A DNA stretch of 64,000 nucleotides, from assembly GCA_944349905.1 (NCBI GenBank), contig CALVNR010000008.1, positions 2,424-66,423 on the forward strand, written 5' to 3'. The notes beneath the pieces are model-generated. The model worked only from the letters and a program-made list of their open reading frames with translations. It had not been told where the DNA came from and ran no database searches. The first letter of the stretch is position 1, and every line of letters begins with the position of its first letter. Shown piece after piece: positions 43,424 through 64,000 of this stretch. The stretch comes from an uncultured Clostridia bacterium. Its GTDB lineage: Bacteria; Bacillota; Clostridia; Christensenellales; UBA1242. A program made the translations under genes and the position numbers.

Positions 43424-43434
43424 TTTTCTTCTCC

Positions 43435-43656
43435 TTATAATAGTTTAAATTTGTCATTTCCACCAATAGTTTGAAATTGTTTTTTAGAATTAGCTATTTC
43501 GTTTTCAAGTGCGTTAAAAATTTTTTCAACATCTTGTTTTGAATATTCGTATGTTGATTTATTTGATAAGTTGCCCAATAATCTAATTTGCTCTAATGCT
43601 TTATTTGTTCTATTTTCGGCTAATCTAACAAATTTATCTCGTTTAGTTTCTGCCAT
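43435..43656 (-). CDS. small helical protein, first gene of the GHKL operon
   Basis: 73 aa (MAETKRDKFVRLAENRTNKALEQIRLLGNLSN...). AGGAGAA lies upstream, and the gene is 11 nt from the GHKL gene. Confidence 0.55.
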   Translation of the reverse strand: MAETKRDKFVRLAENRTNKALEQIRLLGNLSNKSTYEYSKQDVEKIFNALENEIANSKKQFQTIGGNDKFKLL

Positions 43657-43689
43657 TTTATTCTCCTAATTTCATTATTGATATATCAT

Positions 43690-43718
43690 ATATTACAATA
43701 AAAATTTTAATTTGTCAA
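43690..43718 (-). promoter_or_regulatory. sigma-A-type promoter of the GHKL operon
   Basis: The minus strand reads TTGACA (43718-43713), a 17-nt spacer, then TAATAT (43695-43690), about 35 nt upstream of the 73-aa ORF. Confidence 0.5.
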
Positions 43719-43798
43719 TATATTTTATAAATATTTCATACATATTTTCAAAATATTATGTATACATTTTAGAAATATTATAAAAAACTTGATAGAAA

Positions 43799-47369: not shown

Positions 47370-50300
47370 TTAACCGTTTTTCCTTTTAAAATCTTTAAAG
47401 TTTATTGCTACATCAAAAGCAACATCTTGACCCAAAGCTTCAAAGTGTTTTTTACCACATTTAATTTTTATACTCTCTCTATCTCTTAAATCAAGATAAT
47501 TGGTTGAGCCTTTTGTTTCAATTACAAAATATAGTTTCTTTTCATTTTCTGTTTCAACATAAACTGCCCAATCTGGTGTATAATTCCCGATTGGTGTTGG
47601 AATTTTGAACTTATCTGGTATTTTAAAGAAAAGTTTAACATCTCCATCGTTGTCAAGTTCGGTAGCAAAATCGCGTTCTATACCCGAATTATCATATACA
47701 ATATGGTCATATAAAGAATGTTCCACAGCTATTGCATTTTTATCTAAATATGCAAATACTTCCGCGTTGCTTTCTAAATCAAATATATCAACAAAAGAAT
47801 AAGATTTACCTATTTGTTTAGTATATGTTATTCCATCGATACACTCGTTTGCACGAACATAATTAATTATTTTTGTTACTTCTTCAATATATCTTTGTGG
47901 ATTATTAACAAAATCTTGCAATCTATTAGATTTTAATATAATTTGACCTACTGTATTTCTTGTTAATTTACAATTCTCACTTATTTCGCGGATAATATCT
48001 GGAATTAAAAATTCGCTATCAACTTCTTCAAATTTAGCGCCTTGTGATGTGTAATCGATACCTCTTTTATCAATATTGATTTTAACTGTTTCTTTTGCGA
48101 TTTTTATCTTTTGAATTTGTGGCATTTCTGAAATAGATTTAACACATTTTTCAATCAATTTATCTTTGTCCATATTGATACGATAAATTGTTTTTTGTTT
48201 AATTTTATTCCATATAGATTGAAATTCTGGTTCCTCAAATAAATTATCCTTTCTCTTGACACAAACTTGTTTATACGCTGGCATAACAACAACTTTCTTA
48301 TCAGCTTTCTCTATTTGATTTACAATTCTGTCTTTTGCTCTTTCAAACTTTTTAGGTAAATCAATAGTTCCGTTCTTTAAGTCATTTTTAAGGGTATCTT
48401 TCATTTTACCCTTTGTGTCAATATAGTTTTTAGTCCTAAAAAAGTCTAAAAGTTCTCGTGCATCAGTAGCACTCGTTGTCTTTTCTTGCCCTTGTTCATC
48501 AGTGTATGAGATATTAACAAACATATCAATATCAAGAATACCAAACTTAATCCCTGTTTCTTCTTCAATTTCTTTTTGTAGTTTATCAGCAAATTCGGCA
48601 AAATTTTCTTCTGCTATAACATGTAAAATATTGATATTTTTATCGTCAACTCTTTCACCATCTTGATTAACACAAAGTCTTAGTCCACGTCCTATTTTTT
48701 GCCTACAAGTAAATGTAGTTTTGTTTTCAATCAATGTGCAAATTTGGAAAACATTAGGGTTATCCCAACCTTCTTTCAGTGCTGAGTGAGAGAAAATAAA
48801 TCTAACCGGACAATCAAAAGACAATAACTTTTCTTTTTCTTTCATAATAAGTGCGTAAGTATCATAATCGTCTTGACTTTCTTTTCCTTCGCGAGTATTT
48901 TTTATTTTACCTTTTTTGTCTTTGCTAAAATACCCATCATGAACTTTTGAAACATCAGTGTTATAAAAATCTTTAATTTCCTTATATCTAGGAAGATTTA
49001 TAAGTTCTTCATAACATTCTTCAAACATTTTAGCATATTCGCCTTTATCACTTTTTTCATTATCATAAACACGATATTTTGCAACTTCATCAATAAAGAA
49101 TAATGAAAGAACTTTGATTCCTTTTTGAATATACATTCTTTCTTTGTCAAGATGAGTTTCAATTGTTCTTTTTATCATTTCTCTTTTCTTAACGCTTTCA
49201 TCTATATCGCCAATAGATTGTCCCAACATTAAACTTTCAGTATTAGTAAACTCAATTTCTTCAAAACCTTCCATTGCGTTGATACCAGCAACAATATATC
49301 CGTCGTAAATATCTCTCCCCGTTTTTGCAACAAGATTTGTGTTAGGTCCTACTGTAATTGTATCTCTTTTTGTTGTTCCATCTTTTTTCTTTAAATCTAC
49401 TTCGAGTTTTGCCTTATATCCAGAACTAGCGTCAACTGACAACAATTTAATATATGGTTTATTGTAATCATCTGCAAGAGTATTATTAACTACACAAATT
49501 TGCTTTACTATGTGCATATTATATGCGTCAACCGGGGTAAGTCTATAAACTGTATTGATTTTTTGTCTATGAGTTGCCGAATACCTTAATTCAAATAATG
49601 GATTTAAACTTTCAATAGCTTCTCTTGATTTTGATGTATTATCAACACTTTGTGGCTCGTCAATAATAATGATAGGTTTACATTCTTGCATATACTCTTT
49701 CGCTGTTCTATCCATTGAAAAACTATCTTTTGGTGGTTGATTAAAAAGATTTTCACTCTTTTTAAACGCATCAATATTGATAATCATTATTTCAAGATTT
49801 GTTGACTCCGCAAAATCTTTTATTTCATAAAGTTTGTTAGAATTATAAATAAATGGCTTTAATGTTATACCTTCATATTCGCGTTTGAAATAATCACGAG
49901 TAGTTTGCATAGACTTGTATGCACCTTCTCTAATTGCAACACTAGGAACAATAACAACAAATTTTTTAAATCCATATTGCTTATGTAATTCAAGAATAGT
50001 TTTAGTATAAACAAAAGTTTTACCTGTTCCCGTTTCCATTTCAATATTAAAACGAAGTTCTTTTAAGTCAGTAAGTGGCAAAAGATTTCTGTCTTGAATT
50101 TCGTGCATATTTTTTTCAATTTGTTCCATAGATAAATCAAGACTATTGCCATATCCTAATAATTCATCTTTGCTAAAATCTAAAATATCTAATTTTTGCA
50201 TAGAAAAAGTTGTAGGCACATTTTTAGCACCCCTAAACAAGTCCACAACAGACATAACCGCTTTATCTTGAAATTCTTGTTTCTTAAATTTAAGTTTCAT
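47370..50300 (-). CDS. res: Type III restriction enzyme Res subunit (SF2 helicase + PD-(D/E)xK nuclease)
   Basis: 976 aa with motif I METGTGKTFVYTKT, motif II IIIDEPQS, motif V EGWDNPNVFQICTL and motif VI QKIGRGLRL. The C-terminal nuclease motif is YTPDWAVYVE...YFVIETKG. Confidence 0.88.
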   Translation of the reverse strand: MKLKFKKQEFQDKAVMSVVDLFRGAKNVPTTFSMQKLDILDFSKDELLGYGNSLDLSMEQIEKNMHEIQDRNLLPLTDLKELRFNIEMETGTGKTFVYTKTILELHKQYGFKKFVVIVPSVAIREGAYKSMQTTRDYFKREYEGITLKPFIYNSNKLYEIKDFAESTNLEIMIINIDAFKKSENLFNQPPKDSFSMDRTAKEYMQECKPIIIIDEPQSVDNTSKSREAIESLNPLFELRYSATHRQKINTVYRLTPVDAYNMHIVKQICVVNNTLADDYNKPYIKLLSVDASSGYKAKLEVDLKKKDGTTKRDTITVGPNTNLVAKTGRDIYDGYIVAGINAMEGFEEIEFTNTESLMLGQSIGDIDESVKKREMIKRTIETHLDKERMYIQKGIKVLSLFFIDEVAKYRVYDNEKSDKGEYAKMFEECYEELINLPRYKEIKDFYNTDVSKVHDGYFSKDKKGKIKNTREGKESQDDYDTYALIMKEKEKLLSFDCPVRFIFSHSALKEGWDNPNVFQICTLIENKTTFTCRQKIGRGLRLCVNQDGERVDDKNINILHVIAEENFAEFADKLQKEIEEETGIKFGILDIDMFVNISYTDEQGQEKTTSATDARELLDFFRTKNYIDTKGKMKDTLKNDLKNGTIDLPKKFERAKDRIVNQIEKADKKVVVMPAYKQVCVKRKDNLFEEPEFQSIWNKIKQKTIYRINMDKDKLIEKCVKSISEMPQIQKIKIAKETVKINIDKRGIDYTSQGAKFEEVDSEFLIPDIIREISENCKLTRNTVGQIILKSNRLQDFVNNPQRYIEEVTKIINYVRANECIDGITYTKQIGKSYSFVDIFDLESNAEVFAYLDKNAIAVEHSLYDHIVYDNSGIERDFATELDNDGDVKLFFKIPDKFKIPTPIGNYTPDWAVYVETENEKKLYFVIETKGSTNYLDLRDRESIKIKCGKKHFEALGQDVAFDVAINFKDFKRKNG

Positions 50301-50312
50301 TTTGTTTTACCT

Positions 50313-51110
50313 TTATATTAAATTATTATTTTTTAAGTATCTTATATAATAAAATGGTATATCAATATATTCTACCTTATAATAATCATCATCTGGTAGT
50401 TCTTCATTAACCCAAACTATTGCACCACCAATGTAATTTTCATCAATTAAATTTCCTAATTTTTCACAAGCTAAATTTATGTCTAGATTTATTAAACCTA
50501 CAATACTCTTATAAATATAATCATTTAATTCATCTAATACTAAAAAAGCCTTGTTGATAGTTGGCAATAAATCAATAAAAATTTCCTTTTGGTGCTTCAT
50601 AAGTATTTGTTTCGCTTTTTGATTTATTTTTTTATCATTTAATAAAACTTTAATTTCTAAAAATAGTTTATTTTGAGAAATATGAGTGAAAGGAACACCT
50701 TTATGTTGAGCATAATTCCTTAATGCTTTTACTACCATATATTCATAACTTGTATCATATAATTCACTATCTTTTATTTCCAAAATAGATTTATTATTTT
50801 TAAATATATTTTTATTATTTTTGTATTTGTTTAAATACTTTTTCCAAAATTCAATATTTGTATAAAAAGCATTTATTGAATTGAAAATTATAGAATATGT
50901 TTCAATTTCATCGTAATTTGTTTTTGCACAAAACTCATTAAACTGTTTTTGTATACTTTTATAATTTACAGAAAGAAAATTCAAATATCTTAACTCATTA
51001 ATTATATTAATATGCTTTATATAGAAATCCACGTCTTCATTTGTGAGTTCAGATTTTTTACATCTTCCTAAATCATCTTTTAATATTAGATGATATTTTC
51101 TAATATTCAT
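50313..51110 (-). CDS. HEPN-like (Rx4H) protein inserted between mod and res
   Basis: 265 aa. MVVKALRNYAQHKGVPF contains an R-x4-H motif in a helical context, as in HEPN/Abi-type proteins. Its start overlaps the mod stop. Confidence 0.5.
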   Translation of the reverse strand: MNIRKYHLILKDDLGRCKKSELTNEDVDFYIKHINIINELRYLNFLSVNYKSIQKQFNEFCAKTNYDEIETYSIIFNSINAFYTNIEFWKKYLNKYKNNKNIFKNNKSILEIKDSELYDTSYEYMVVKALRNYAQHKGVPFTHISQNKLFLEIKVLLNDKKINQKAKQILMKHQKEIFIDLLPTINKAFLVLDELNDYIYKSIVGLINLDINLACEKLGNLIDENYIGGAIVWVNEELPDDDYYKVEYIDIPFYYIRYLKNNNLI

Positions 51111-53056
51111 TAAAATAACCTCATTTCTTTGTTGCGAGATTTTAAGATTTCTTCTGCGTTTACTAAAAGGTTGTCTGTGTTAAAACAACGATCAGCAAAT
51201 AGATATGTTCCAACACTTTCATTTGCAAAATCTTCAATATCTTCTATTGTTAAATTTGGATATGTGCAAACAAGTAATTTATATTCTGGTGCTTCAATTA
51301 TATATGCTTTATCATTTTGTGTTTTTGTTATTGGTAAACCCAAATCAATGCCATATTTAAGCATAACTTCATAAACCAAATCAAACTCATTTCTATCATC
51401 TTTAATATAGTCTATACTTGTCTGAATTCTATTTTGAATTTCATCAACATCTTTTGTTGGTGTGTTATCCCATTTTTTAAGATTAGAGCTATCAAGTTTG
51501 AAAACTTTAAAACCTAAATCAATTTCTTTGCTTGGATCTTTTTGCTCGATTTCATTTCCCGCAATTTTTATTCTTTCTTTTGCTATCTCTGTCAAAAAAC
51601 AAGGTTTATTATGTTGTTCACACCACTCAATAGCATTCTTCAATGTTTGTTTCTCTCTATTTCCTTGTGCTGTTTTTAAATTTTCTTTTAAATTTTCAGG
51701 TAATTGAACACAAATATATTTTCTTGAACCTTCATCTTCAAAATTTAATTCCATTACAGCGTGTGCAGTTGTTGCTGAACCAGAGAAAAAATCCAAATAT
51801 ATTCCATCTTTATCATTTGCACATTCAATAAGAGTTTTTATCAATTTTATTGGTTTGGGAAATTGAAAGACTTTTCTCCCAAAATAAGATTCCAATAAAT
51901 CCGTATCCTTTCTTGTTTGCATTTTAAAATATGCTCTAATTAAATCTAATTTTGATGAATTAATATATGTCTTTTTAGAACACAGATTACTATTATCCGC
52001 TGGAAATTTGATTAGATGTTCTTTTATCCATTGCTGCCAAGTTTGTAAATTACATCGCCAACCACTATTAGGAGTTTTTAATTGTTCCCCTGTATATGGA
52101 TTTGTTCTAGTATCATGTGAACCCCCTCTTTGTGGATCATCAATTGGCCCAATTCTATATACGCCAAACTCATCTGCATACTTGTAATTTGATATGTTTT
52201 CATTAGTTAAATTATTGTTGATATAATATTCTTTCAATAATAATTCAATTTTTTCATAGTTGGGCTTATTTAGATTATAAATTTCTTCCAATTCGTCAAA
52301 TATTGGATTCTTAATTCCCCACTCATTTTCTTTTGCTTTATCATATTTTTTAACATAAACAAGACAATATTCGTGAGCAGTCGAAATAATTAATGGATCA
52401 TTTTTAGGTGTTCCTTCAACTACGATTTGTGCTATAAAATTCTTTTCTCCAAAAATATCATCACATATATATTTCAAGTTTTTAACTTCTTTATCGTCTA
52501 TGCTAATAAAAATAATACCATCATCTTTCAGCAAGTTTCTTGCAAGTTTAAGACGTGGATACATCATATTAAGCCAATTTGTGTGATAGCGCCCATCTGT
52601 ATCTGCATTCGATTTTTGTGCTTGTCCTGTTTGCTCTTTATAATTTTTTATATTATCTTCAAAACTATCTTTGTAAACCAAGTCCTTTCCTGTATTATAT
52701 GGTGGGTCTATGTAAATCATTTTAATTCTTCCATTATAAGACGCTTGCAAAAGTCTTAATACTTCCAAATTATCGCCTTCAATATAAAGGTTTTGAGTGG
52801 TATCCCAATCTTTGCTTTCTTCAATGCAAGGTCTTAAAGTCCCAGTAGAACGTTTTTGTGCAAGTTTTGTTGCTTCTGTTTTTCCGTTCCATGTAAAAGA
52901 ATATTGTTCCTTGTTGCGATTAATATTTTCGCCAAGCAACAATTCTAATTCTTCAAAATCTATTTTATCTTCTTTTACAATACTAGGAAACAACTCTTTA
53001 AGTTTTTCCACATTTTCCTTAATCAAATCCATACTTTGTCCGTCTAATTTATTCAT
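51110..53056 (-). CDS. mod: Type III R-M Mod subunit (beta-class N6-adenine/N4-cytosine DNA methyltransferase)
   Basis: 648 aa. Motif IV (MIYIDPPYNTG) precedes motif I (YLDFFSGSATTAHAVM), which is the beta-class permutation typical of Type III Mod. Confidence 0.88.
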   Translation of the reverse strand: MNKLDGQSMDLIKENVEKLKELFPSIVKEDKIDFEELELLLGENINRNKEQYSFTWNGKTEATKLAQKRSTGTLRPCIEESKDWDTTQNLYIEGDNLEVLRLLQASYNGRIKMIYIDPPYNTGKDLVYKDSFEDNIKNYKEQTGQAQKSNADTDGRYHTNWLNMMYPRLKLARNLLKDDGIIFISIDDKEVKNLKYICDDIFGEKNFIAQIVVEGTPKNDPLIISTAHEYCLVYVKKYDKAKENEWGIKNPIFDELEEIYNLNKPNYEKIELLLKEYYINNNLTNENISNYKYADEFGVYRIGPIDDPQRGGSHDTRTNPYTGEQLKTPNSGWRCNLQTWQQWIKEHLIKFPADNSNLCSKKTYINSSKLDLIRAYFKMQTRKDTDLLESYFGRKVFQFPKPIKLIKTLIECANDKDGIYLDFFSGSATTAHAVMELNFEDEGSRKYICVQLPENLKENLKTAQGNREKQTLKNAIEWCEQHNKPCFLTEIAKERIKIAGNEIEQKDPSKEIDLGFKVFKLDSSNLKKWDNTPTKDVDEIQNRIQTSIDYIKDDRNEFDLVYEVMLKYGIDLGLPITKTQNDKAYIIEAPEYKLLVCTYPNLTIEDIEDFANESVGTYLFADRCFNTDNLLVNAEEILKSRNKEMRLF

Positions 53057-53894
53057 TAGTTTTCTCCTTTTTATGAAACAATCTTTTCCACCAAGAATTT
53101 TTACCAGAAGTTTTGTTATTGTTAGTAATATTTATTTCAGTGTTTACATCAGTATGTTTTTCTGAACTATAATTGCCTTTGCCTGTATTAGATTTGTTTA
53201 TTTTTTTATTAATTTTAGTTTCGTTACCTAGATTTCTTGATTTAATACTTGAATTGTCAAAAGTTTGTATATCAAAATTGTTAAAAATTATTGATTTGCA
53301 ATTGTCCACAATTGATGTTATCTCTTTTTTATTTAAATCAAAATTATCTATATCAAACTCATCTAAATTACCAAATTTCTTTTCAAGATATACAACTAAG
53401 TCTAATACTTTACTTTCGACTTTGTTTATAACTTTAATTAATTCCGACTTATCTATATTTAAATAAGCATTAGAAATTGTAATAGTTGTGCCTTTTTGAA
53501 ATAAAACATAAGAAGAAACAGGTAAAGGAATAGATAAGTGTTTATTTTCATTATAATTTTCTATCATATTAACAATGGTTGCTATCGGTTGGAATAGTTT
53601 TTTGTGAGTTAAATTATCTAATGTTTCTTCATCAAGATTAATAGTAGGCAATATATGGTGTTTATAGGACCAAATTTTACCATATCCAATCATCTCATAA
53701 TCTCCCATTATGTTTGTAATTATTGACCGATATTCTGGAACTTGATCATCATCTTCATACCCATATAATTCTTTCTTTACCCAATTTACCATATCAATAC
53801 TTTCTAAGTCGTTTAATATAACATAAAGCCTTTTTAGAACAGACTCTAAATTTTTGCTTGTGGTAATATCTTTCAATATGTTACTTTTTGCCAT
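53049..53894 (-). CDS. AbiTii-like abortive-infection-type protein
   Basis: 281 aa. The N-terminal LKRLYVILNDLESIDMVNWVKKELYGYEDDDQVPEYRSI matches my recollection of the AbiTii domain (..W...EL.GY....VP.YR). It overlaps mod by 8 nt. Confidence 0.5.
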   Translation of the reverse strand: MAKSNILKDITTSKNLESVLKRLYVILNDLESIDMVNWVKKELYGYEDDDQVPEYRSIITNIMGDYEMIGYGKIWSYKHHILPTINLDEETLDNLTHKKLFQPIATIVNMIENYNENKHLSIPLPVSSYVLFQKGTTITISNAYLNIDKSELIKVINKVESKVLDLVVYLEKKFGNLDEFDIDNFDLNKKEITSIVDNCKSIIFNNFDIQTFDNSSIKSRNLGNETKINKKINKSNTGKGNYSSEKHTDVNTEINITNNNKTSGKNSWWKRLFHKKEKTNE

Positions 53895-53899
53895 TCAAT

Positions 53900-56512
53900 T
53901 TACCTCACTTCAAAGTATATCATAAAATCTTTTGATTTGCTCACTTTTACATCTAAATTTTTAGTTAATTCTTCACTTTTTGCCTTTAATTCACGATTGA
54001 TTTTTGATTTTGCTAAAAATTCATTGTCTTTTAATTCAAAAAGTTTTTCTGTAAGCTCATTTATTTGTTGGTTTTTAGCAAACTTATCTCCAAAGTTATC
54101 ACCAAATGAATTTTCTTTTAGATTATCTATTTCTTTTTGTAAAATCTTAATTTCTTTTTCAAGTTTGGCCTTTTTATCATTTGCAATCATATTTAAGTGA
54201 GAAATTGGCAATTTTACATTATCGTTGTATTTTATTTTAATTTCATCAACTATCTTTGGTATTTTTTCGTCTATTAAGTTTTCAAATTGATTTGATACAT
54301 TTATATCAATAGGCAATTCTCTATATTCTAAACTTTTCAAAAACAATATATTTTCACAATCTTCACTATTAATTATATTTCCATTTTCATCAATACCTAC
54401 TAGTATCTTTTCTTCAAATATTTGAAATCCAACATAGATTTGCAAATTATAATAAGCAATATATCCTTTTAATCCTTTATAATTTTCATTAGATTCCATA
54501 ATATAATGAGTTGGTTTTAAATTAGCAAAATGTGACAAATTAAATATCATATTTTGGCATGGTTCACTATTTAATGTAAAATGATGAATATATTCATCAC
54601 TATCAGTAAGTGTATAGACAAATGGTTTTGCAAACATATTCTTTTCGTGCCACTTTGTTTTTACTTCTAGTTCTGTTTCAGTTATAAAATTGTTTTTATA
54701 ATAATAATGTGCCAAGTCAAAAATTATTGTTTTTAATTCTTTAACCTTTTGTTTAATTATATCTGCCATATTTTTAGTTCGTTCGATTAGAGTTTTGTTA
54801 AAAGTATTAAATAACATTGTATTAGCATCATTTTTGACATTTTCTAGTTCTTCTTTAAATTGCTCACTTAAATCTGCAAAATCCATTTGAACTTCTTTCT
54901 TTTTTCTAACACCGGTAAGCGCGTCTATAATATTTTGTTCTATATCGCCATCAATTGCTCCAGAAATAATATTATCACTTGCCCCTACAATACTATTTGA
55001 AATATTAAAACGTTTATAAAAAAGTTCATACATTCTAACATCATAAAAATTGTTTGGGCAAATAAAGTTAACAACAAAAACATCACTTGCTTGACCAATT
55101 CTATGACATCTTGAAATTCTTTGTTCCATATCTAGTAAAACTTGTGGAAAATCATAGTTAACAACAAAACAAGATTTTTGCCAATTTAAGCTTTCATTAC
55201 CTTTATCTGTTGATATAAGTATGCTAGGTCTATCGCTTGATAGAAATTTCTTTATAGGTTCATCGTTTGTGGTTCCATTAAAATCACAAACATTATAATC
55301 AGTAAATTCCATTAAAAGCTTATGTATATGTTCTTGCGTCCCCGTATTACCCGTAAAAATAACACACTTTTTTTGCAAACCTTTTTTATAAAATATTGAA
55401 AAAGTCTTCTCTAATGCCTTTAACAACATATCATCTTTATTGTTTCTTTTAATTTCTGATGATAATTCTAGCATATCTTTTATTTCTCGACGCTCATTTT
55501 GATTTTCATCAGTAGCACATTTGTTTAATCTTGTATAAATTCCTGACAAAGTTTTACTTAAAGCATAAGCAGAAGAAGATAATGTGCCATACAACATCAA
55601 AGATAGTTCATAAGGGTCCATTTCTGGAAAAGCATATCTATGTGGTTTTGATATGTAATTCTCTATTTTTTTATACAATTCTTGCTCTAAATCTGTCATT
55701 TGATAGATTTGTGTTAATATTTGTCTTTCAGTTAATTTTGTTTCTAATTTAACCTCGTTTCTTAAAGTTCTAAATGTGTATGGTGCAATAATTTCTCTTA
55801 ATTCTGAATAGTTTTCAGGTTTTCTAAAATATCTTTTATGAAATTCATCATAATCGGTAAAAATATTTTCATCTATAAAATTTATTAGTCCAAATATATC
55901 ATCTTCATTCTTTTGTATTGGTGTCGCTGACAATAAGATTTTTTTAGCATTTGGGATAATTGAAATTATTGTTTCGGCAGTTTTATTCTCTTTGATTTTA
56001 TAACTTCTAAATCTATGGGCTTCATCTAAAATACATAGTTCCCAATCAATATTTTTAAATCTGTCACTATTTGATAATATATAATCATAAGTTGTTAAAA
56101 CAACTCCACCTTTAAATTTCTCTAAACTAATGAAATAATTTTCGGAAACAATTCTTTCCTCATTATCTAAAATATATGGTCTTATATCAAATTTCCTTAT
56201 TAAATCTATAAGCCAATCATTAACAGTTGGCGATGGCACTATTATCAAAACATTTCTATTTTGTCTTGTGTATTGAGAAACGATTAACAATGCCTCCATT
56301 GTTTTTCCAAGTCCAGCTTCATCAGCTAAAATAAATCCTTTTACAAAAGGATTTTCTAACGCAAAACAAGCAGCATATATTTGATGAGAAAAAATCTCAA
56401 TACCATTATTCAAATAAGTTGGTATCAAGTTTTCTTTTTTACCTAATTCATATTGTTTGCTTATCTTTTTAACAAGATAGTGAGCTTGCAAATCATTAGT
56501 TATTGTCATCAA
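53900..56512 (-). CDS. SNF2-family helicase with a C-terminal extension of about 350 aa
   Basis: 870 aa with motif I LADEAGLGKTMEAL, motif II ILDEAHRF, motif III LLSATPIQKN and motif VI QRISRCHRIGQ. The C-terminal half is an unassigned domain plus coiled coil. Confidence 0.85.
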   Translation of the reverse strand: MMTITNDLQAHYLVKKISKQYELGKKENLIPTYLNNGIEIFSHQIYAACFALENPFVKGFILADEAGLGKTMEALLIVSQYTRQNRNVLIIVPSPTVNDWLIDLIRKFDIRPYILDNEERIVSENYFISLEKFKGGVVLTTYDYILSNSDRFKNIDWELCILDEAHRFRSYKIKENKTAETIISIIPNAKKILLSATPIQKNEDDIFGLINFIDENIFTDYDEFHKRYFRKPENYSELREIIAPYTFRTLRNEVKLETKLTERQILTQIYQMTDLEQELYKKIENYISKPHRYAFPEMDPYELSLMLYGTLSSSAYALSKTLSGIYTRLNKCATDENQNERREIKDMLELSSEIKRNNKDDMLLKALEKTFSIFYKKGLQKKCVIFTGNTGTQEHIHKLLMEFTDYNVCDFNGTTNDEPIKKFLSSDRPSILISTDKGNESLNWQKSCFVVNYDFPQVLLDMEQRISRCHRIGQASDVFVVNFICPNNFYDVRMYELFYKRFNISNSIVGASDNIISGAIDGDIEQNIIDALTGVRKKKEVQMDFADLSEQFKEELENVKNDANTMLFNTFNKTLIERTKNMADIIKQKVKELKTIIFDLAHYYYKNNFITETELEVKTKWHEKNMFAKPFVYTLTDSDEYIHHFTLNSEPCQNMIFNLSHFANLKPTHYIMESNENYKGLKGYIAYYNLQIYVGFQIFEEKILVGIDENGNIINSEDCENILFLKSLEYRELPIDINVSNQFENLIDEKIPKIVDEIKIKYNDNVKLPISHLNMIANDKKAKLEKEIKILQKEIDNLKENSFGDNFGDKFAKNQQINELTEKLFELKDNEFLAKSKINRELKAKSEELTKNLDVKVSKSKDFMIYFEVR

Positions 56513-56588: not shown

Positions 56589-56927
56589 TTAAAAATTAAT
56601 ATAAATTATATTTTTATTTAAAGACTTTGCATAATCTATTGTTTGTTTAGTTCCACCGGGTTTACCATCAAACAAAGCTATACAAAGAGAAGAATTGTTT
56701 ATCATGAATTTATTTCTTTCTTTCATGCAACCATCTTCATATTTGTCATAAATACATCTAATACAATCTAATTGTTTGATAATAGATTTATATCTTTGTT
56801 TATGTTCATTATTCCATTTTTCATCTTGATTCCTACAAGGTAATGCACCTATTAATCTTATGTTTTTATCGTTTTTCTTCAACTCTAAAACAATTTCAGC
56901 ACAAATCATATCAAATCCAAGAGCCAT
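56589..56927 (-). CDS. SLOG-fold DUF1273/YpsA-like protein, apparently truncated at the N-terminus
   Basis: 112 aa starting MALGFDMICAEIVLELKK...LIGALPCRNQDEKWN...FDGKPGGTKQTIDYAK. The in-frame upstream codons (KRGYDSFIAG-M) continue the family alignment but reach a stop after 17 codons with no ATG. A different frame holds ATG-MFYKKRPFAGLSKG. Confidence 0.55.
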   Translation of the reverse strand: MALGFDMICAEIVLELKKNDKNIRLIGALPCRNQDEKWNNEHKQRYKSIIKQLDCIRCIYDKYEDGCMKERNKFMINNSSLCIALFDGKPGGTKQTIDYAKSLNKNIIYINF

Positions 56928-56994: not shown

Positions 56995-58062
56995 TTAATC
57001 ATCTTCTTGGAAACTCTTTTTATATTCTTCGTAAGTGATACCTCTTTTCTTTAAGCTTTCCAAGAGTGCAACCATAAAAGGGCTTTCAAAATCAACTTTT
57101 TCTTCAATTTCACCTGTTTGAGAAACTTCCTCTTTTATTAATTTTGATAATTCAGATATTGTGATTTTCTTTATATCTTTTTTATTATCTTCTATGTTAT
57201 GGTCGCAAGACAAATCTCTCTCACCATACTCATTACCAATAACAAAGTATGAACAAACTGAAACTTTATTACCATAATTATAACCTGCATTAAAGATAGC
57301 TTCAATAAGTCTTAATCTTCCTTCCGTTGTTGTTTCTCTAATAGAATCCGACAAACAAATTAAAGGCCAATTATCTCTTTCTGGGTATTTTTCTGCAATT
57401 TTTTTCAATTTTTTTGCAAATTTTCGTGTTTTTTCGCCAATTTCTTCATTATTTTCTTTATTTTGTTTTATTGAAGAAACAATAAAGTTTTCTGTCCTAT
57501 CTTTAACATTAGGACATAATTCAATAATCTCAATAAGAGAAAATCCAAGTTTATTTAATATCTCCTTGAACTCTATCATTGTATTGTGGGCGTCAACTTC
57601 AGCGTCATGTTCACCCTCTTCGCCCTTTAATTCAAGTTCTTCCAAAATGTTTAATACTGATATTTCTTTTTTAGTATTCTTGTATTCTTTATAAAACAAT
57701 TTAACATCGTAAAAATCAAAATCAATACTTGGTAAATTATATCTTTTACAATCATCATTTAATGCCTTGGCGTCATTATTTAGCGAGTGCCCTAGAACAT
57801 AATCACAGCTTTCTATTATCTCCTTAATTTTAGGATAATATTTATTGAAAGTAAGTCTTTCTTCATACTCCTTTTTAGTTCTTGTAAGTATGTGTTTTAA
57901 TGCCCACCAATCCCATTCATCATTAGATATATATGGATTGATTATAAGATTATTCCTTTCTATTATTTCAAACTTTTCATTAGTGATAACATACCCGAAT
58001 TCACAAATTTTACAACCATTCATACAACTTGCATACTCTAAATCAAAAAATAAAATTTTCAT
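56995..58062 (-). CDS. DEDDh 3'-5' exonuclease (DnaQ-like) with a possibly BRCT-like C-terminal domain
   Basis: I moved the start to ATG 58062 (MKILFFDLEYAS). It has Exo I (FDLE), Exo II (HSLNNDAKAL) and Exo III (HDAEVDAHNT). The C-terminal region ICLSDSI...RLRLIEAIFNAGYNYGNKVSVCSYFVIGNEYGE is BRCT-like by eye. Confidence 0.75.
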   Translation of the reverse strand: MKILFFDLEYASCMNGCKICEFGYVITNEKFEIIERNNLIINPYISNDEWDWWALKHILTRTKKEYEERLTFNKYYPKIKEIIESCDYVLGHSLNNDAKALNDDCKRYNLPSIDFDFYDVKLFYKEYKNTKKEISVLNILEELELKGEEGEHDAEVDAHNTMIEFKEILNKLGFSLIEIIELCPNVKDRTENFIVSSIKQNKENNEEIGEKTRKFAKKLKKIAEKYPERDNWPLICLSDSIRETTTEGRLRLIEAIFNAGYNYGNKVSVCSYFVIGNEYGERDLSCDHNIEDNKKDIKKITISELSKLIKEEVSQTGEIEEKVDFESPFMVALLESLKKRGITYEEYKKSFQEDD

Positions 58063-58075: not shown

Positions 58076-58621
58076 CTATATTTTATCACCATTAAAGATA
58101 ATATCGTTTCCAACATTTATTTCTTCAATTAAATTCTTTTTGTTATAAAACCAATCTTTCTCATTTACATATCTGTCAGAAATATAATTGATATTTTGAT
58201 TTACTGAACCGACCAATGCTCTATTATTGTCAATTTTTTGCTCATCAAAATAACCATCAATGATGATATCACATTGATTTTTTAAATTATCATCAATTTC
58301 ATTTAATTGATATCCAGTAAAAAGAATTATACCTAATCCCAAACTTTTAACTTCTTCAAGTAGTTTAACTAAATCAATTTGTAAGAGTGGTTCTCCACCT
58401 GATAGTGTTACCCCCTCTATTTTGTTCTCTATTTTACTTTTTCTTATTATTTCAAGTAAATCTCCAAGAGAAATGATATTAGCTGGTTTTAAAGGTTGTA
58501 ATGTCTTATTACAACAACCTCTGCAATTTCTATTACAACCTTGAAACCATATACACAATCTTTTAAATGGACCTTCTACTTCTGTGCATGTATTTATAAG
58601 TGCAACATTAAACTTAATCAT
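58076..58621 (-). CDS. NrdG-like radical-SAM activase-type protein (4Fe-4S CxxxCxxC)
   Basis: 181 aa with EVEGPFKRLCIWFQGCNRNCRGCCNK (C-x3-C-x2-C) and the SAM-binding GVTLSGGEPLLQ. Its start overlaps the AAA+ gene stop by 8 nt. Confidence 0.75.
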   Translation of the reverse strand: MIKFNVALINTCTEVEGPFKRLCIWFQGCNRNCRGCCNKTLQPLKPANIISLGDLLEIIRKSKIENKIEGVTLSGGEPLLQIDLVKLLEEVKSLGLGIILFTGYQLNEIDDNLKNQCDIIIDGYFDEQKIDNNRALVGSVNQNINYISDRYVNEKDWFYNKKNLIEEINVGNDIIFNGDKI

Positions 58622-60440
58622 TAAAACTAAACTCTAATCCTTTGTCTGATGTTTTAACAAGCAATTTTGAACCTTTATATAGTCCTAAATCTTGTTTATT
58701 GTTAAACAAGAACATTGATAATTCATCAAGTAAAATATCATTAATTGCATTAAGAATATCTCTTCCGCCTTTTGATTTATCAACTCTCTTTAAAATATAT
58801 CTGATAAAATTAAGTTCACTTTCAAACTCTAAATCAAGTCTGTATTTTTCTTGAATTCCTTTCTTAATTGGATTTAATTTACTCTTTGCAATTTGGATAG
58901 CAAACTCATCATCAAGAATAAAATTAAATGGAATAATATTACTATAACCAATTCTTCCAAGAATTTCTGGTCTTTTTATTTCGTTATCAAAATAATTCTT
59001 AACAATCTTAATAAATTCTTCCGCTGTTTCTTCTTTATTATCAGACGGTTTAACTTCACTTGCACCAAGATTTGATGTAAAGATTATTATACTTTCGCTA
59101 AAATATACTGTTTCGCCTTTACTATCGGTTAATCTTCCATCTTCAAGTATTTGTAAGAAAATATCAAGTATTCTTGGATTTGGTTTAGCTGCTTTTTCAA
59201 TCTCATCAAATAAAATTACACTAAATGGTTTTTCTTTTATAGCATTTGTTAATTGTCCACCTTGCTCGTATCCAACATATCCCGGTGGAGCACCAATTAA
59301 TTTTTGGTCTGAATTCTCTTGTGCATACTCACTCATATCAAATCTAATACAAGCCTGCTCATCACCAAATAAGAATTTAGCAAGTGCTTTTGAAAGTTCT
59401 GTTTTACCAACACCAGTTGGTCCTACAAAGAAGAACACCCCTTTTGGCATGGACCTACTTGATGTCTTATGTAAACCTGTTAAACCCATATATGCTTTAA
59501 CAACTGTTTTCTCAATCTTTTCAATTGCTTCATCTTGTCCTACAACTCTTTCAGATAATTTCTTCTTGATGTTTTTAACATCTTCATAAGCAAGTTTTTC
59601 CCAAGGATTATCCTTTTCGCCATACTTGAATAATAAGTATAGTTTATCAAATGTTAACTTTTCTTCCTTTCTTGAAAGTTTTGCCATTTGTATTATTTCT
59701 CTATTGGTAAAATCTTCCAAAACATCAATATATTCATTTGTTCTACTGCTATTTAACAAAGTTTCGCCCGGATTGAATTTAAGTTCAAATCCTGCTTCAA
59801 TTTTTTCCAATAATCTACGTCTTTCCAATCTGTCTGGTTTAGACAATGTTATTGTTGAGACTTCTGGGTTTGCTTGATAAAAAGACAATGGGAAATTTGA
59901 CAACTTGTTTGTGATAAGTATAATTGTGCTTTCATTTACATCTGTTGATAGATAATTAACTTTTTTATCTTTAATTGATTTGCCCAACAATGTTAAATTT
60001 TGTCTTTCTTCATTATCGTGTTGACCACCATTTGAGAAAAGATAATCTGACCAATTTAATATAAATACTGTTTTTCTATTTTTATTTGTTAAGTTTTTAA
60101 AAACTAAATTAAAAATTTCACTTGGTTCTTTAAAGTTTCCATTTGATATAGTTGTATTTTGGTTTTCACCTTCATCATCAAGCGAGTATTCTTCACCTTC
60201 AACTTCTTTTTCTTCGGTTATTTTAAGACTACTTATATCACCCTCAATTCCATTTACTCTATCCCAATAAACAATATCGTCATACTTTAAATCTTCAAGC
60301 ATTTCTGTTAAATACTTTTTTAAGTCAACAATTTGATTTTTGTCATCAAGGTAAACATCACCGACATTGCCGTCAATGATAACGCACCTTTTAATACCGA
60401 CTTCTCTTTTTATTCTTTTAAAACCAATTTCTAATGCCAT
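58614..60440 (-). CDS. ClpA/ClpB-type AAA+ ATPase (single D2-like module) with a unique N-terminal region
   Basis: 608 aa with VVGQDEAIEKI, Walker A GPTGVGKTELSKALA, Walker B ILFDEIEKA and sensor TSNLG. The N-terminal region of about 290 aa is unassigned. Confidence 0.85.
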   Translation of the reverse strand: MALEIGFKRIKREVGIKRCVIIDGNVGDVYLDDKNQIVDLKKYLTEMLEDLKYDDIVYWDRVNGIEGDISSLKITEEKEVEGEEYSLDDEGENQNTTISNGNFKEPSEIFNLVFKNLTNKNRKTVFILNWSDYLFSNGGQHDNEERQNLTLLGKSIKDKKVNYLSTDVNESTIILITNKLSNFPLSFYQANPEVSTITLSKPDRLERRRLLEKIEAGFELKFNPGETLLNSSRTNEYIDVLEDFTNREIIQMAKLSRKEEKLTFDKLYLLFKYGEKDNPWEKLAYEDVKNIKKKLSERVVGQDEAIEKIEKTVVKAYMGLTGLHKTSSRSMPKGVFFFVGPTGVGKTELSKALAKFLFGDEQACIRFDMSEYAQENSDQKLIGAPPGYVGYEQGGQLTNAIKEKPFSVILFDEIEKAAKPNPRILDIFLQILEDGRLTDSKGETVYFSESIIIFTSNLGASEVKPSDNKEETAEEFIKIVKNYFDNEIKRPEILGRIGYSNIIPFNFILDDEFAIQIAKSKLNPIKKGIQEKYRLDLEFESELNFIRYILKRVDKSKGGRDILNAINDILLDELSMFLFNNKQDLGLYKGSKLLVKTSDKGLEFSFND

Positions 60441-60453: not shown

Positions 60454-61554
60454 CTATTTTTTATCTTTGTTTGTATTATATGTCTGATACTTCATTGTGG
60501 AAATTTTATCTGGATTACTCCATAATGTTTCTGATTTTGTAACTTTAATTCCATAAATTTTTTCTAAATCCTCTAAAAATGGATTTATATCTTTCTGACA
60601 AGCTTGGCCTTCATATCCATCAAATTTATATATAAATCTTCCATCAAGGAAAACTTGAAATTCTGCTGTTTGACCATTAACCTTTTGTGCTATTAAAACC
60701 ACTTGATTTTTATCTCGTTGTAATTTTATATTTTTCTTGTCAACAATAAAACCTCTTTGTTCAATTGATTTTATGATACATTTTAAAGCTTCTTTTCTTA
60801 CATGCTCATCAACAATTTCTTTATTGGTTTGTTCTTGAATTTTTTGTAATGAAGAACTATCAAACTTTTCTACCTTAACTATCTTATCAATCTCATTTTG
60901 TTCCAGATTGATATCTTTAAGTTGTTTTGTAATTTTTTCAATAATGTTTTCTTTATTATCACTAATAGTTTTATTGACTTCACTATCCAATATTATCTGT
61001 GCTTGTTTTACGATTTCATCAAAACTCTTACCAATATTGTTTTCTTTGATTAATTCTAAATAAACATAATCTTTTAGCACAATATCTTCAATCTTATTAA
61101 ATTGTTCATATAGTTCTTTACTAAAAGCGACTGTCCCACTGATTTGTTTTTGTAATAATTTATTTCTATCACTAACACTTGTTGCAAGAATTCTCTTTAA
61201 AAGTGTTTCATATTCGTATATCCTTTGAGAACTAAAGCTATTACATCTACTTAATAATAAATTCGCTTTATTAACGATTTCACGACTTGTATCTACTTCA
61301 CCATATACAACACCTTTTTGCTTTTGTTCCTCTGCTAATTGTTTTAGACTATTAATCTCTTTATTAAGATTATCTTTTTCTTTCAGTAGTTGTTCTCTTA
61401 ATTTTTTACTATCTTCATTTAACAACAATGATGAGTTATCTTCTATTTTTTTTAGGATAGTATCAATGTCAGACAATGTATTTTCAGCAGTTTTACAAAT
61501 GCTACAACACTGTATTGCTTGACCTTCAAAATCAATTCTTGCTTGATGGCTCAT
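60454..61554 (-). CDS. coiled-coil hypothetical protein with a C-terminal globular domain
   Basis: 366 aa. GAGG lies upstream of the ATG, and the gene overlaps the upstream gene by 23 nt. Long heptad regions are present. The C-terminal region is GFIVDKKNIKLQRDKNQVVLIAQKVNGQTAEFQVFLDGRFIYKFDGYEGQAC. Confidence 0.6.
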   Translation of the reverse strand: MSHQARIDFEGQAIQCCSICKTAENTLSDIDTILKKIEDNSSLLLNEDSKKLREQLLKEKDNLNKEINSLKQLAEEQKQKGVVYGEVDTSREIVNKANLLLSRCNSFSSQRIYEYETLLKRILATSVSDRNKLLQKQISGTVAFSKELYEQFNKIEDIVLKDYVYLELIKENNIGKSFDEIVKQAQIILDSEVNKTISDNKENIIEKITKQLKDINLEQNEIDKIVKVEKFDSSSLQKIQEQTNKEIVDEHVRKEALKCIIKSIEQRGFIVDKKNIKLQRDKNQVVLIAQKVNGQTAEFQVFLDGRFIYKFDGYEGQACQKDINPFLEDLEKIYGIKVTKSETLWSNPDKISTMKYQTYNTNKDKK

Positions 61555-63700
61555 TGTTTACCTCGCTTTTGAAAATATATTCATTCCATTTATTTAACTC
61601 ATCAATGTTAAAATGTATTTCATCTTTGCTTGGGTGTAATAACTTATTTCTACATATTCTTAATGTATGTAATAAACTTGCTTCGTTTGGTTTTATTAAT
61701 TTGTTATTTTCTGCTAACATTATTTTATCATAAAAATCCATTTCATTACTATCATTTAATGACAATTCCTTTGTTAGGTCATAATCAACTTTTATGACCA
61801 TATCTGCAACTGCCGATTTAAAATCACCTCTTTTAATTTTATTATCAATAAAATCAAATGTAATTTTCTCTGGTTTATATGATGATTGTTGCTCAATAAT
61901 TGCATACTCATAAATAGGTTTAATTATGCTGTTATAATTTTCAATTTCACTAAATTTATCAATTGAAAATTCCTTATACTTAACTAAATAGTTATAAGAT
62001 TTTTCAAATTCAACATAGTTGTTTACCAAATCTATCATATTATAATTTCCATCAATTACATAATCAGTAATAGATTTTATACCTAATAATTGTTTAAGGT
62101 ATTCTAATCTGTTTCTTGTTTTTTCAGATTCCAATGCTAGTTCGTTATCATCACTAATTTTTATATTCTCTATGATGTCATTCAAATATATATCATACAA
62201 ATTAATTATTGATAATGCTTCTATCATCTTATAATTACCATTTAATATACTCTTAAATAATTTTTCATCTTTGTCAATATTTTGAGTTACTTTCATTAAG
62301 AATTCATGTGAAGATAATCCCAATATTTTTTGAATTGGTTTTATAAAGTCAATATATGTAGCAAAATTTGATACATTGATTTCCTTTATTGTCTTTTCCA
62401 AAATTTGTTCAGCAATCAGTTGAACTACATTATCACTTTCTGTTAAAATTTTGCTCAATACATTCAAGTTTAATATTTGCTGTGATAACTCATTCTTTTC
62501 AAGAATATGTTTCGTTAAATACTGTGATAAATAATTATTATCATCACTAGAAATTAATTTTGCAATTAATATATTTCTATCTGTAAAGTCTAAACTTATT
62601 TCATTATATACTTCTTTATAGAAATATTCTTTTTCATTAGAGTTTAATTCTTTTTCAAGAATTAAATTAAGTGATATTGTTTTATCAATGCTCTCAACAT
62701 AAAAGTCAACACAAGCTGGAATATATGCTTTCATAATGCCATTACTTAAAGTTAAATAATCTGCTCCATAATCTTCTTTTTTTAATGTTAAACCGGTTTT
62801 ATACTTTCTTTTAAAAACATAGTATTTCCCTGTTTGAATTAATAATTCTGGTGTTTCTTGTGGTGCAGTTTGGATTTGAGATGGCAAGAAAATTGATGTT
62901 AAATTTGATATATCGCTTAAATTTTTCACTTTAACAATTTTCATATCATTTGCAAACTTAAATTTTTCTTTATAGGCAAATATGGCTGTAATATTTTCAC
63001 TTGTGTAATATTTCTTTACAAAATTCTCTAATCTATCATCAGTAAATGTCAAAGTTAATTTATTATCTTCTAATTTCAAAATGACACAATCTTCATATTT
63101 AGCACTTTGCATTTTCATTTCTTCATTTTGAACAGAAATTATTTCTTCTTGTTCTTTAAAATTAAAATTCTTTTTGTTTTCTTGAACAATATCTAAAAGT
63201 GATGAAAAGTCGTATTTATAATCTTTAAACATCTCTTCTGAAATTTTGTTTTCATTATCGTTTGGTTTCATTTTTAAACCAACAGATGTAAGAATTTTGT
63301 TGTTTAGCAAATCATAGTATAATGGCACTATTTTTACCAATTCTTTACCAGTTGGAACAGCTCCATTTTTAAAAATCTTGTTTCCTTTTTCTGTAAATTC
63401 AAAATCTTTAACCAAATATTCTTTAAAATAGTCAGCATTAAATTTTAATCTTCCAAGTTTAATAATATCTAGTTGTATCATATTTTCAATTTCATCAATA
63501 AACATAAATATTAAATCATTTGGAACTCCGAATTTTCTCAATACATCATATAGTTTTTCATCATTTTTAGAATTATTATTTATTAGTGCTAATAAAATAT
63601 ATTGTATGCCTGACGCTTGTTTTACTTCTGTATAATTTACCTTTGAACGCATAACTTGAATTGGTATAGAAAATGATGTCTTAAATCTTAAAAATTCCAT
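61532..63700 (-). CDS. 722-aa protein with a C-terminal HEPN-like (Rx4H, DUF4145-like) domain
   Basis: The C-terminus reads ...AVADMVIKVDYDLTKEL...ASLLHTLRICRNKLLHPS (R-x4-H). The remainder is unassigned. Its start is 1 nt after the helicase stop. Confidence 0.6.
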   Translation of the reverse strand: MEFLRFKTSFSIPIQVMRSKVNYTEVKQASGIQYILLALINNNSKNDEKLYDVLRKFGVPNDLIFMFIDEIENMIQLDIIKLGRLKFNADYFKEYLVKDFEFTEKGNKIFKNGAVPTGKELVKIVPLYYDLLNNKILTSVGLKMKPNDNENKISEEMFKDYKYDFSSLLDIVQENKKNFNFKEQEEIISVQNEEMKMQSAKYEDCVILKLEDNKLTLTFTDDRLENFVKKYYTSENITAIFAYKEKFKFANDMKIVKVKNLSDISNLTSIFLPSQIQTAPQETPELLIQTGKYYVFKRKYKTGLTLKKEDYGADYLTLSNGIMKAYIPACVDFYVESIDKTISLNLILEKELNSNEKEYFYKEVYNEISLDFTDRNILIAKLISSDDNNYLSQYLTKHILEKNELSQQILNLNVLSKILTESDNVVQLIAEQILEKTIKEINVSNFATYIDFIKPIQKILGLSSHEFLMKVTQNIDKDEKLFKSILNGNYKMIEALSIINLYDIYLNDIIENIKISDDNELALESEKTRNRLEYLKQLLGIKSITDYVIDGNYNMIDLVNNYVEFEKSYNYLVKYKEFSIDKFSEIENYNSIIKPIYEYAIIEQQSSYKPEKITFDFIDNKIKRGDFKSAVADMVIKVDYDLTKELSLNDSNEMDFYDKIMLAENNKLIKPNEASLLHTLRICRNKLLHPSKDEIHFNIDELNKWNEYIFKSEVNNEPSSKN

Positions 63701-63701: not shown

Positions 63702-64000
63702 TTATCTATCCTCCTTTATTATGTCGTCTGATTGCAATATTTTTCCATATACATCTATTGTATTGATTATTTCCTTATAGACCGGATACGCTTGTCTATC
63801 CAATGCTTTATTGCCATCGATATCTGGTAAATTTATTACTCCACAATTAGATAAGAAATCTTTATTACCAACAACAATCAATAATTTCCTTGCTCTACTC
63901 AAAGCAACATTAATTCTTTCAAATTTCTTAATAAACTCATAATTACCTGTTCGTTTTATAGGGTTTCTAACCATTGACAAGATAATAATATCTCTTTCAT
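63702..64000 (-). CDS. SF1 (Upf1/DNA2-like, AAA_12-type) helicase, C-terminal end only
   Basis: ERDIIILSMVRN...INVALSRARKLLIVVGNKDFL is helicase motif VI with its typical tail. The ORF is open at the window edge. Confidence 0.7.
   Translation of the reverse strand, partial: ERDIIILSMVRNPIKRTGNYEFIKKFERINVALSRARKLLIVVGNKDFLSNCGVINLPDIDGNKALDRQAYPVYKEIINTIDVYGKILQSDDIIKEDR

Follow-up and report, generated by a model that had tools for sequence, protein, structure and literature searches.

A conserved five-gene helicase cassette, probably antiviral in role, that couples an activase-like radical-SAM enzyme to a ClpB-type unfoldase

What does a small radical S-adenosylmethionine (rSAM) enzyme do when its gene is joined to that of a ClpB-type ATPase in the midst of defence genes? 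This question is raised by a stretch of 64,000 nucleotides from an uncultured Clostridia bacterium (GCA_944349905.1, contig CALVNR010000008.1, positions 2,424 to 66,423), referred to here as the window, to which all coordinates apply unless another locus is named. At 58076..58621 its minus strand encodes a 181-aa NrdG/PflA-like rSAM enzyme. The original prediction described it as an orphan activase-type enzyme in a defence cassette, translationally coupled to the ATPase gene and followed by an exonuclease gene. The open reading frame (ORF), with the CxxxCxxC and GGEPLL motifs ascribed to it, is indeed there, and it shares 8 nt (58614-58621) with the ORF of the AAA+ ATPase. The enzyme is not an orphan, however. 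Its gene comes fifth in an operon that is conserved, moves horizontally and looks like an undescribed anti-phage system.

This operon, hereafter the cassette, encodes in order an Upf1/MkoA-like superfamily 1 (SF1) helicase (gene 1), a variable protein whose C-terminus is an RNase-type effector (gene 2), a 366-aa protein that we call p366 (gene 3), the AAA+ ATPase (gene 4) and the rSAM enzyme (gene 5), which is the terminal gene of the unit. We scanned 185,579 species genomes, obtained 571 relatives of the rSAM enzyme and examined the best 80 loci, to which the genome-locus counts given here refer. Homologs that are about 50% identical to the rSAM enzyme lie after the same four genes. All five genes were found in the same order and on the same strand in 45 of the 56 genome loci that had at least 9 kb of upstream sequence. 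In six others only gene 2 was swapped or had diverged past BLAST recognition, and the rest consisted of two decayed remnants and three loci that belong to a different system (the FtsH type discussed below). As an independent test, a metagenome scan was anchored on gene 3. The AAA+ and rSAM genes were present in 63/63 of these loci with enough downstream DNA, and the helicase and gene 2 in 55/55 with enough upstream DNA. Protein sizes are similar across loci (helicase ~1450-1540 aa, gene 2 ~720 aa, gene 3 ~366 aa), the genes overlap or are spaced by at most 34 nt in nearly all of them, and the coupling between the AAA+ and rSAM genes is kept in every related locus with enough sequence. All four cassette genes that were tested are under purifying selection. 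The original prediction had stated that it would fall if the rSAM gene did not travel with its neighbours; the gene does travel with those of the cassette. A scan for promoters and terminators between 56 and 64 kb gave nothing above shuffled sequence.

The cassette is distributed patchily, in Clostridia, Bacilli/Mollicutes-like bacteria, Campylobacterota (Helicobacteraceae), Bacteroidota, Proteobacteria (Sphingomonadaceae, Ruminobacter and Colwellia), metagenome-assembled genomes (MAGs) of Planctomycetota, Spirochaetales and the candidate phyla radiation, and two archaeal lineages. It was also found on seven IMG/VR contigs, six with the helicase end present and one cut by the end of the contig. 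Three loci (L009, L008 and L010) are near-identical to window positions 58076-60440, at 98-99% identity for the AAA+ protein and 89-92% for the rSAM enzyme, and they come from MAGs labelled Clostridia, Lachnospiraceae and 'Cyanobacteria bacterium UBA4641'. Near-identical copies in MAGs with such different labels reflect either very recent transfer or a binning error. Among the close copies, the window included, the rSAM enzyme has diverged more than the AAA+ protein. Remnant copies of the cassette were found as well (L034 and L051). The AAA+/rSAM pair of L003/L034 (Haloplasmataceae) was considered as a two-gene system in its own right and rejected, as a gene 3 fragment is still present and the pair is a remnant.

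Only the C-terminal end of the helicase gene lies in the window (63702..64000, minus strand). The gene extends about 4 kb past the window end and encodes ~1445 aa in all. It is complete in locus L007 and in locus L102 (1516-5853, 1445 aa), whose p366 is 100% identical to that of the window. The protein is an SF1 helicase of the Upf1/IGHMBP2/DNA2 type with AAA_11 and AAA_12 domains, and the PADLOC model for MkoA matches residues 345-1428 of the full helicase at 3.2e-89. Gene 2 (61532..63700, minus strand, 722 aa) is the fastest-evolving gene of the cassette, with ~26% identity between lineages and a weak match to DUF4145. It carries a C-terminal HEPN-type motif (R684-N-x3-H689, plus R681), of which R684, N685 and H689 are at least 95% conserved, and an R-N-x3-H end is found in most lineages. 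In Colwellia, Fervidicella and another proteobacterium, gene 2 ends in a PIN_4 domain instead, with a Ppx/GppA domain at this position in a Bacteroidetes MAG. Exchange of effector domains on a constant scaffold is typical of conflict systems. The gene 2 protein is likely the sensor/effector of the cassette, and the effector is likely this HEPN/PIN protein rather than the rSAM enzyme or the exonuclease.

The AAA+ protein (58614..60440, minus strand, 608 aa, AAA_2) is the most conserved product of the cassette, with 60-75% identity even between phyla. Its active module, residues 286-581, resembles the D2 module of ClpC, ClpB and ClpA, and the Walker A motif (G340PTGVGKT347), the Walker B motif (D412-E413) and the pore loop (G387-Y-V-G-Y391) are all intact and show almost no variation. 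No Walker A motif is present in the first ~280 aa, which carry a PDRxER motif at 202-207 and look like a degenerate AAA module. Inspection by eye revealed no ClpP-docking tripeptide ([IVL]G[FL]) in the protein. The product of gene 3, p366 (60454..61554, minus strand), matches no family. It was modelled as long coiled-coil-like helices (residues 9-266) that lead into a small beta/alpha domain, itself conserved, at the C-terminus, and a fold search with this model gave no significant match in the PDB. Its N-terminal cysteines C16 and C20 are conserved, and it has an invariant loop, F311-x-G313-Y314-E-G-Q-A318-C319, for which the predicted local distance difference test (pLDDT) score is below 50. 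A likeness of the p366 C-terminus to DUF2997 was considered but was unsupported in Pfam scans of 24 members. One homolog (P0169) is 630 aa long, with the coiled-coil segment repeated about three times and the C-terminal domain unchanged, and the helical part of the family appears to be a length-variable spacer.

The rSAM enzyme has the hallmarks of its superfamily. It matches Fer4_12 (4e-28) and Radical_SAM (1e-12) in Pfam, its cluster motif reads C29-NRN-C33-RG-C36 and its SAM motif G75-G76-E77-P78-L-L, and the three cysteines and G75-G76-E77 are invariant in alignments of 20 and of 68 homologs. Before the cluster it keeps the xGPxxR loop of activases, their DGxGxR-type substrate loop (E16-G-P-F-K-R21, with EGPGxR in proteobacterial members). 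Other invariant residues are specific to its clade, namely C12, C37 ('CCN' replaces 'CHN'), G138-S-x-N141 and R150-Y151, and the family carries a C-terminal extension of ~35 aa. Against its two closest relatives, the ratio of nonsynonymous to synonymous substitution rates (dN/dS) is 0.17-0.23, which indicates purifying selection and thus a functional coding gene; for the AAA+ gene, the ratio between close relatives is 0.04-0.06.

Next, we consider which rSAM family the enzyme belongs to. Its best NCBIfam matches are all glycyl-radical activases, namely NrdG (over its full length), NrdG2, PflA and YjjW, each below the curated cutoff (for NrdG, TIGR02491, 86.4 bits against 126.1; for NrdG2, 66.9 against 131; for nrdG3, 42 against 152). 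The models of QueE (34.8 bits against a cutoff of 260, and 21 against 300), MoaA and viperin score far under those of the activases. The solved structure that best matches a profile of 20 rSAM homologs is the pyruvate formate-lyase activating enzyme (PFL-AE) of E. coli (2e-12). The AlphaFold model (pLDDT 85) has its top Foldseek matches in PFL-AE as well (8fo0/3c8f/3cb8, E 3e-7, TM 0.57), with B. subtilis QueE second. These matches, together with the retained xGPxxR loop, support the assignment of the protein as a minimal rSAM enzyme of the NrdG/PflA type, in line with the activase-type family first proposed for it. A search of the profile against 1.84 billion representatives gave 117 clusters at E<=1e-30 and 3239 at E<=1e-10. 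As was also proposed, a partner of the usual kind was not seen: the glycyl-radical motif R[IVTL][CSAT]G[YFW] is absent from window ORFs of at least 100 aa, and no cassette protein matches a glycyl-radical or Que family. NrdD was not found in the window, where the ORFs of 600-900 aa that were checked encode RNase R, phosphoketolase and VirB4, and where the Pfam scan covered part of the ORFs between 1 and 29 kb.

The phylogenetic placement that had been called for was obtained as a neighbour-joining tree. It confirmed a separate position for the family, as the ClpB-linked rSAM enzymes of the cassette and a group of FtsH-linked rSAM enzymes group together in one clade, to which neither the phage NrdG-like proteins nor PflA belong. 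This sister group had already been noted computationally, as an rSAM 'effector' in FtsH ternary conflict systems for which a peptide substrate was predicted independently (Kaur, Burroughs, Iyer and Aravind 2020, PMC7159879). The ClpB-type cassette is not mentioned in that paper. The most distant rSAM relatives that we recovered (35-40% identity) lie outside the ClpB-type cassette. Those of Planctomycetota are encoded in an operon with the order RtcA-rSAM-fvmX6-fvmX5-FtsH(AAA+M41)-fvmX7, and a gammaproteobacterial locus has a similar set. The clade that unites the ClpB- and FtsH-linked enzymes is thus one of activase-like rSAM enzymes with two-module AAA+ unfoldases as recurrent partners. In the planctomycete loci L079 (8347-18716), L080, L082 and L084 a gene for an RtcA-like RNA 3'-phosphate cyclase lies directly upstream of the rSAM gene, which suggests an RNA-end link in a system that was described as peptide-centred. 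The RtcA-like protein of L079 has an N-terminal extension of ~190 aa.

Outside both of these systems, a relative of the broader rSAM clade is fused to DUF5591, the core domain of ArcS, in a 391-aa protein (P0403; L100 6044-7219, also in L101) that scores 141 bits against the cassette profile. Its contig is phage-like, with an HmuI-like homing-endonuclease gene, GroES and many small ORFs, and the fusion may be a one-protein ArcS-RaSEA-like enzyme for 7-deazaguanine modification of phage DNA. In ArcS-RaSEA itself, the rSAM enzyme acts on a tRNA base adduct (PMC11298593).

How do these findings fit the surroundings of the cassette in the window? Downstream of the rSAM gene lies the expected exonuclease gene (56995..58062, minus strand), whose product is of the DEDDh type (RNase_T, Pfam 2.5e-7) with an uncharacterised C-terminal half. 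Its ORF begins 13 nt past the rSAM stop codon, which is overlapped by a GAGGGA Shine-Dalgarno sequence. The start is likely the ATG at 58062, the one listed at 58116 probably lying too far upstream. The original prediction envisaged that the rSAM gene would co-occur with both of its neighbours. This holds for the AAA+ gene but not for the exonuclease gene, which is present in 7/80 genome loci and 5/63 metagenome loci. It was therefore rejected as a core partner and is an accessory sixth gene of some lineages only. Next to it is a YpsA/SLOG-family ORF (56589-56927, 112 aa) in which the N-terminal third of the domain is missing. In L001/L035 a complete YpsA homolog (165 aa, 37% identity) is encoded on the opposite strand, just past the downstream end of the cassette, and the association of YpsA with the cassette may be loose.

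Beyond these genes the defence context that had been proposed is apparent. A DrmD-like SNF2 helicase (53900-56512), beside which no other DISARM genes were seen in the window, is followed by AbiTii (53049-53894) and by what the translations indicate is a type III restriction-modification-like pair (47370-53056), made up of a methylase-like ORF (51110-53056) and a restriction-like helicase (47370-50300) with a 265-aa ORF between them (50313-51110). Neighbours of the cassette in L001 are SIR2-HerA and a faint match to nSTAND3. Three large ORFs of the window have no Pfam match (43799-47350, 1183 aa; 41504-43423, 639 aa; 40645-41520, 291 aa). Together with a DUF6339 protein (39875-40645) they form a run, 39875-47350, that could be another uncharacterised system of the island. 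Then come a LexA/S24-like repressor (39146-39742) and an ECF-like sigma factor (37652-38164). The region 14507-37071 is an apparent integrative conjugative element (ICE) next to a tRNA-Thr gene (14507-14582), with a VirB4-like ATPase (24145-26778), a type IV coupling protein (33713-35878) and a MobL relaxase (35875-37071). It seems to carry the defence island, cassette included, as cargo. The other end of the window holds a phosphoketolase gene (10201-12546) and a housekeeping trans-translation cluster with transfer-messenger RNA (tmRNA; 6283-6668, tag ANNQSSYNTAAMAA), RNase R (7244-9334) and a 156-aa ORF (6678-7148) at what we take to be the position expected for SmpB.

Taken together, the reading of the cassette that we tentatively prefer, although we regard it as possible rather than probable, is that the AAA+ unfoldase exposes a polypeptide from which the activase-type rSAM enzyme abstracts hydrogen, within a cassette that attacks RNA to counter phages or mobile elements. 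The helicase and the HEPN/PIN protein would sense and attack RNA, and the AAA+ protein and the rSAM enzyme would act as one working pair. In this pair, the unfoldase would pull out or thread a polypeptide segment, and the rSAM enzyme would cleave SAM to generate a 5'-deoxyadenosyl radical that abstracts hydrogen from the exposed segment. The resulting irreversible protein modification would either arm the effector or disable the target. Glycyl-radical activases are known to abstract hydrogen from a flipped-out glycine loop. Within the cassette, the best candidate substrate would be the loop F-x-G-Y-E-G-Q-A-C of p366, which is invariant and predicted to be flexible; a phage protein would be the alternative. 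The defence part of this reading draws on the conservation of the five-gene unit, its patchy spread among hosts and its presence on IMG/VR contigs and a conjugative element, the exchange of HEPN, PIN_4 and Ppx/GppA effector domains, the MkoA-like helicase and the defence-gene neighbours, a picture that matches horizontally mobile defence systems. The activase part draws on the family and structure matches and the loop given above, and the pairing with an unfoldase on the intact Walker A and B motifs and GYVGY pore loop and on the sister rSAM enzymes beside FtsH in the same clade, for which a peptide substrate had been predicted (PMC7159879).

Several observations weigh against this reading. 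Both the defence role and the rSAM chemistry are predicted from the genes alone, and the p366 loop was singled out as a substrate solely for its conservation and low model confidence. No cassette protein has a canonical glycyl-radical motif. A small ORF for a precursor peptide, whether before the helicase gene or after the rSAM gene, was not found in common across lineages. The rest of the cassette points to RNA, as it includes an RNA-type helicase and a HEPN/PIN protein, and RtcA is present in the sister systems. The DUF5591-rSAM fusion indicates that the same scaffold also serves nucleic-acid base chemistry. Among the carriers, Sphingomonadaceae and Colwellia (cassette) and Gemmata (sister type) are taken as aerobic. 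A persistent glycyl radical, which would not survive in such hosts, is thus an unlikely product. Searches with hmmsearch and hhalign showed no homology of p366 or gene 2 to the X5 and X6 proteins of the FtsH systems. A short look-alike was seen between p366 ('FDGYEGQACQ', 311-320) and the fvmX6 protein of L079 (10657-11826, 'FDEGYQASQ'), each ~50 residues from the C-terminus. As the glycine is lost in the divergent X6 protein of L086, this resemblance is probably due to chance. A homolog search with X6 returned close Planctomycete relatives only.

The main rival explanation is that the rSAM enzyme acts on RNA or a nucleotide, either modifying or damaging RNA that the helicase exposes or making a viperin-like nucleotide, while the AAA+ protein only assembles or regulates the complex. 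We consider this unlikely, but it has the most to commend it among the alternatives: the partners in the cassette are RNA-directed (an Upf1/IGHMBP2-type helicase and a HEPN or PIN protein), the planctomycete sister enzyme directly follows RtcA, the fusion of a close rSAM relative to DUF5591 in a phage-like contig has a precedent in ArcS-RaSEA (PMC11298593), and QueE is the second-best structural match. Against such chemistry stand the low scores of the QueE, MoaA and viperin models relative to those of the activases, the absence from the cassette of nucleotide-handling partners (a kinase, a tRNA-guanine transglycosylase (TGT) or a phosphoribosyltransferase), and the finding that the constant genomic partner of the enzyme is an AAA+ unfoldase and not a helicase, no helicase match having been found in the FtsH-type loci examined. 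The possibility that the gene is an ordinary nrdG located away from nrdD is scarcely credible. Its best match is the NrdG model, along its full length, and the Joint Genome Institute gives the name NrdG to some homologs. However, members of the clade, ClpB- and FtsH-linked alike, score only 74-103 bits with that model (74-101 for the cassette relatives), whereas a phage NrdG-like control passes it with 148.9 bits. The gene is also bound to the same five-gene operon, which is not one of ribonucleotide reductase, in every locus examined, across phyla and in archaea, and its clade lies apart from the phage NrdG-like proteins. NrdD was not found in the window. On these grounds a housekeeping NrdG was ruled out.

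Two further alternatives concern what the module is for rather than what it modifies. The cassette may not be antiviral at all and may serve instead for addiction or maintenance of mobile elements, or for RNA quality control, on conjugative elements and prophages. Its presence on an ICE in the window and on IMG/VR contigs and the existence of the remnants L034 and L051 are consistent with this, but the defence-gene neighbours, the swapping of effectors and the MkoA-like helicase are features that usually mark an immune system, and we regard a non-antiviral role as distinctly unlikely. It is very unlikely, in our view, that the rSAM enzyme is a checkpoint or sensor, in which a SAM-bound Fe-S cluster reports the level of SAM or the redox or oxygen state and gates the AAA+ protein or the effector, or that it is an effector that consumes SAM. 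Depletion of SAM could be caused, for example, by SAM-degrading enzymes of phages. A sensor would suit a small, operon-terminal protein that is translationally coupled to the AAA+ protein, has the extra clade-specific cysteines C12 and C37 and evolves faster than its partner, as the dN/dS values above illustrate. Nothing supports sensing directly, however, and neither the full catalytic apparatus nor the substrate loop of the activases varies from phylum to phylum, which argues for real turnover on a substrate.

If the unfoldase does feed or expose a polypeptide of the system or of the phage to the activase-like rSAM enzyme, radical protein chemistry would be the switch or weapon of a new immune mechanism, and the FtsH ternary systems would be a second use of this pairing. 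That the cassette embodies such a new mechanism is somewhat doubtful at present, and there is a real chance, of similar size, that the rSAM chemistry is categorically new. Novelty at the level of the system was assessed in databases and the literature. PADLOC v2 has no defence model that matches genes 2, 3 or 5, except for weak viperin matches on the cluster region of the rSAM enzyme, NCBIfam (June 2026) has no model specific to any cassette protein, and full-text literature searches aimed at the cassette, or at an rSAM enzyme in defence, returned no description of the cassette. As it is absent from both databases, the cassette has probably been scored as a Mokosh-like helicase plus hypotheticals, or its rSAM enzyme misnamed NrdG. 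It is common, with 571 matches among ~186,000 species genomes, many of them from human and animal gut metagenomes, and the cultured carriers Colwellia ponticola OISW-25 and Fervidicella metallireducens AeB make it testable.

How, then, does the cassette compare with known systems? The FtsH ternary systems share with it a related rSAM enzyme paired with a two-module AAA+ protein whose N-terminal module is inactive. They differ in that their FtsH has an M41 peptidase, that they have MoxR and vWA components (PMC7159879) and that their other components are not the same; no helicase or HEPN/PIN protein was seen in the FtsH-type loci examined, and the core of MoxR, vWA and FtsH with fvmX domains is absent from the window cassette. 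Mokosh (Millman et al. 2022) has the same MkoA-type, Upf1-like COG1112 helicase. Unlike Mokosh, the cassette has neither a phospholipase D (PLD) nuclease, as no cassette protein gave an MkoB-type PLD match, nor a kinase domain, and it has a HEPN/PIN protein and three further obligate genes. The AAA+ protein resembles DolB, the ClpB-like AAA_2 protein of Dodola (3e-21, best over residues 275-460), and the M37B models of the PADLOC candidate PDC-M37 (9e-34 and 1e-30), in both cases mainly in the ATPase core. The DolA and M37A models match no cassette protein, and no Dodola or PDC-M37 model matches the rSAM enzyme. As it has no PLD nuclease, no DolA match and no MoxR, vWA or FtsH, the cassette is not Mokosh, Dodola or an FtsH ternary system, and we class it with the multi-gene defence systems that combine a helicase and a nuclease, its rSAM-unfoldase module being new.

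The rSAM enzyme itself is likewise set apart from NrdG, QueE and viperin by its sub-cutoff scores and the wrong context. With the glycyl-radical activases (NrdG; PflA/PFL-AE, 3CB8, 8FO0) it shares the minimal rSAM fold, the CX3CX2C motif directly after an xGPxxR loop, the GGE(P) motif and a size of ~150-250 aa, but it differs from them in its sub-cutoff scores, C12 and C37, the ~35-aa extension, an obligate AAA+ partner and the lack of a detected glycyl-radical partner. It is linked to ArcS-RaSEA and phage ArcS2 through the relative that is fused to DUF5591, whereas the cassette itself has no DUF5591, TGT or Que genes. Viperins, Ophion (OpnA) and HXS are anti-phage systems that, like the cassette, contain an rSAM enzyme. 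Their enzymes come from a different rSAM family, have nucleotides as substrates or serve in the maturation of a repeat peptide, and are not paired with an unfoldase. That viperins are another family, as originally proposed, agrees with the scores of their models (28 bits against a cutoff of 180 in NCBIfam; 26-34 bits in PADLOC, with pVip at 34 on the cluster region only) and with the size of the rSAM enzyme, 181 aa against ~280 aa for a prokaryotic viperin. If the pairing proposed here is real, the cassette provides the first handle on the rSAM enzyme that was predicted, and never tested, in the FtsH ternary systems. The rSAM enzymes of defence have so far been associated with nucleotides (viperins and probably Ophion) or with peptide maturation (HXS), and immunity would gain another type of chemistry from an activase-type enzyme that is tied to a protein unfoldase.

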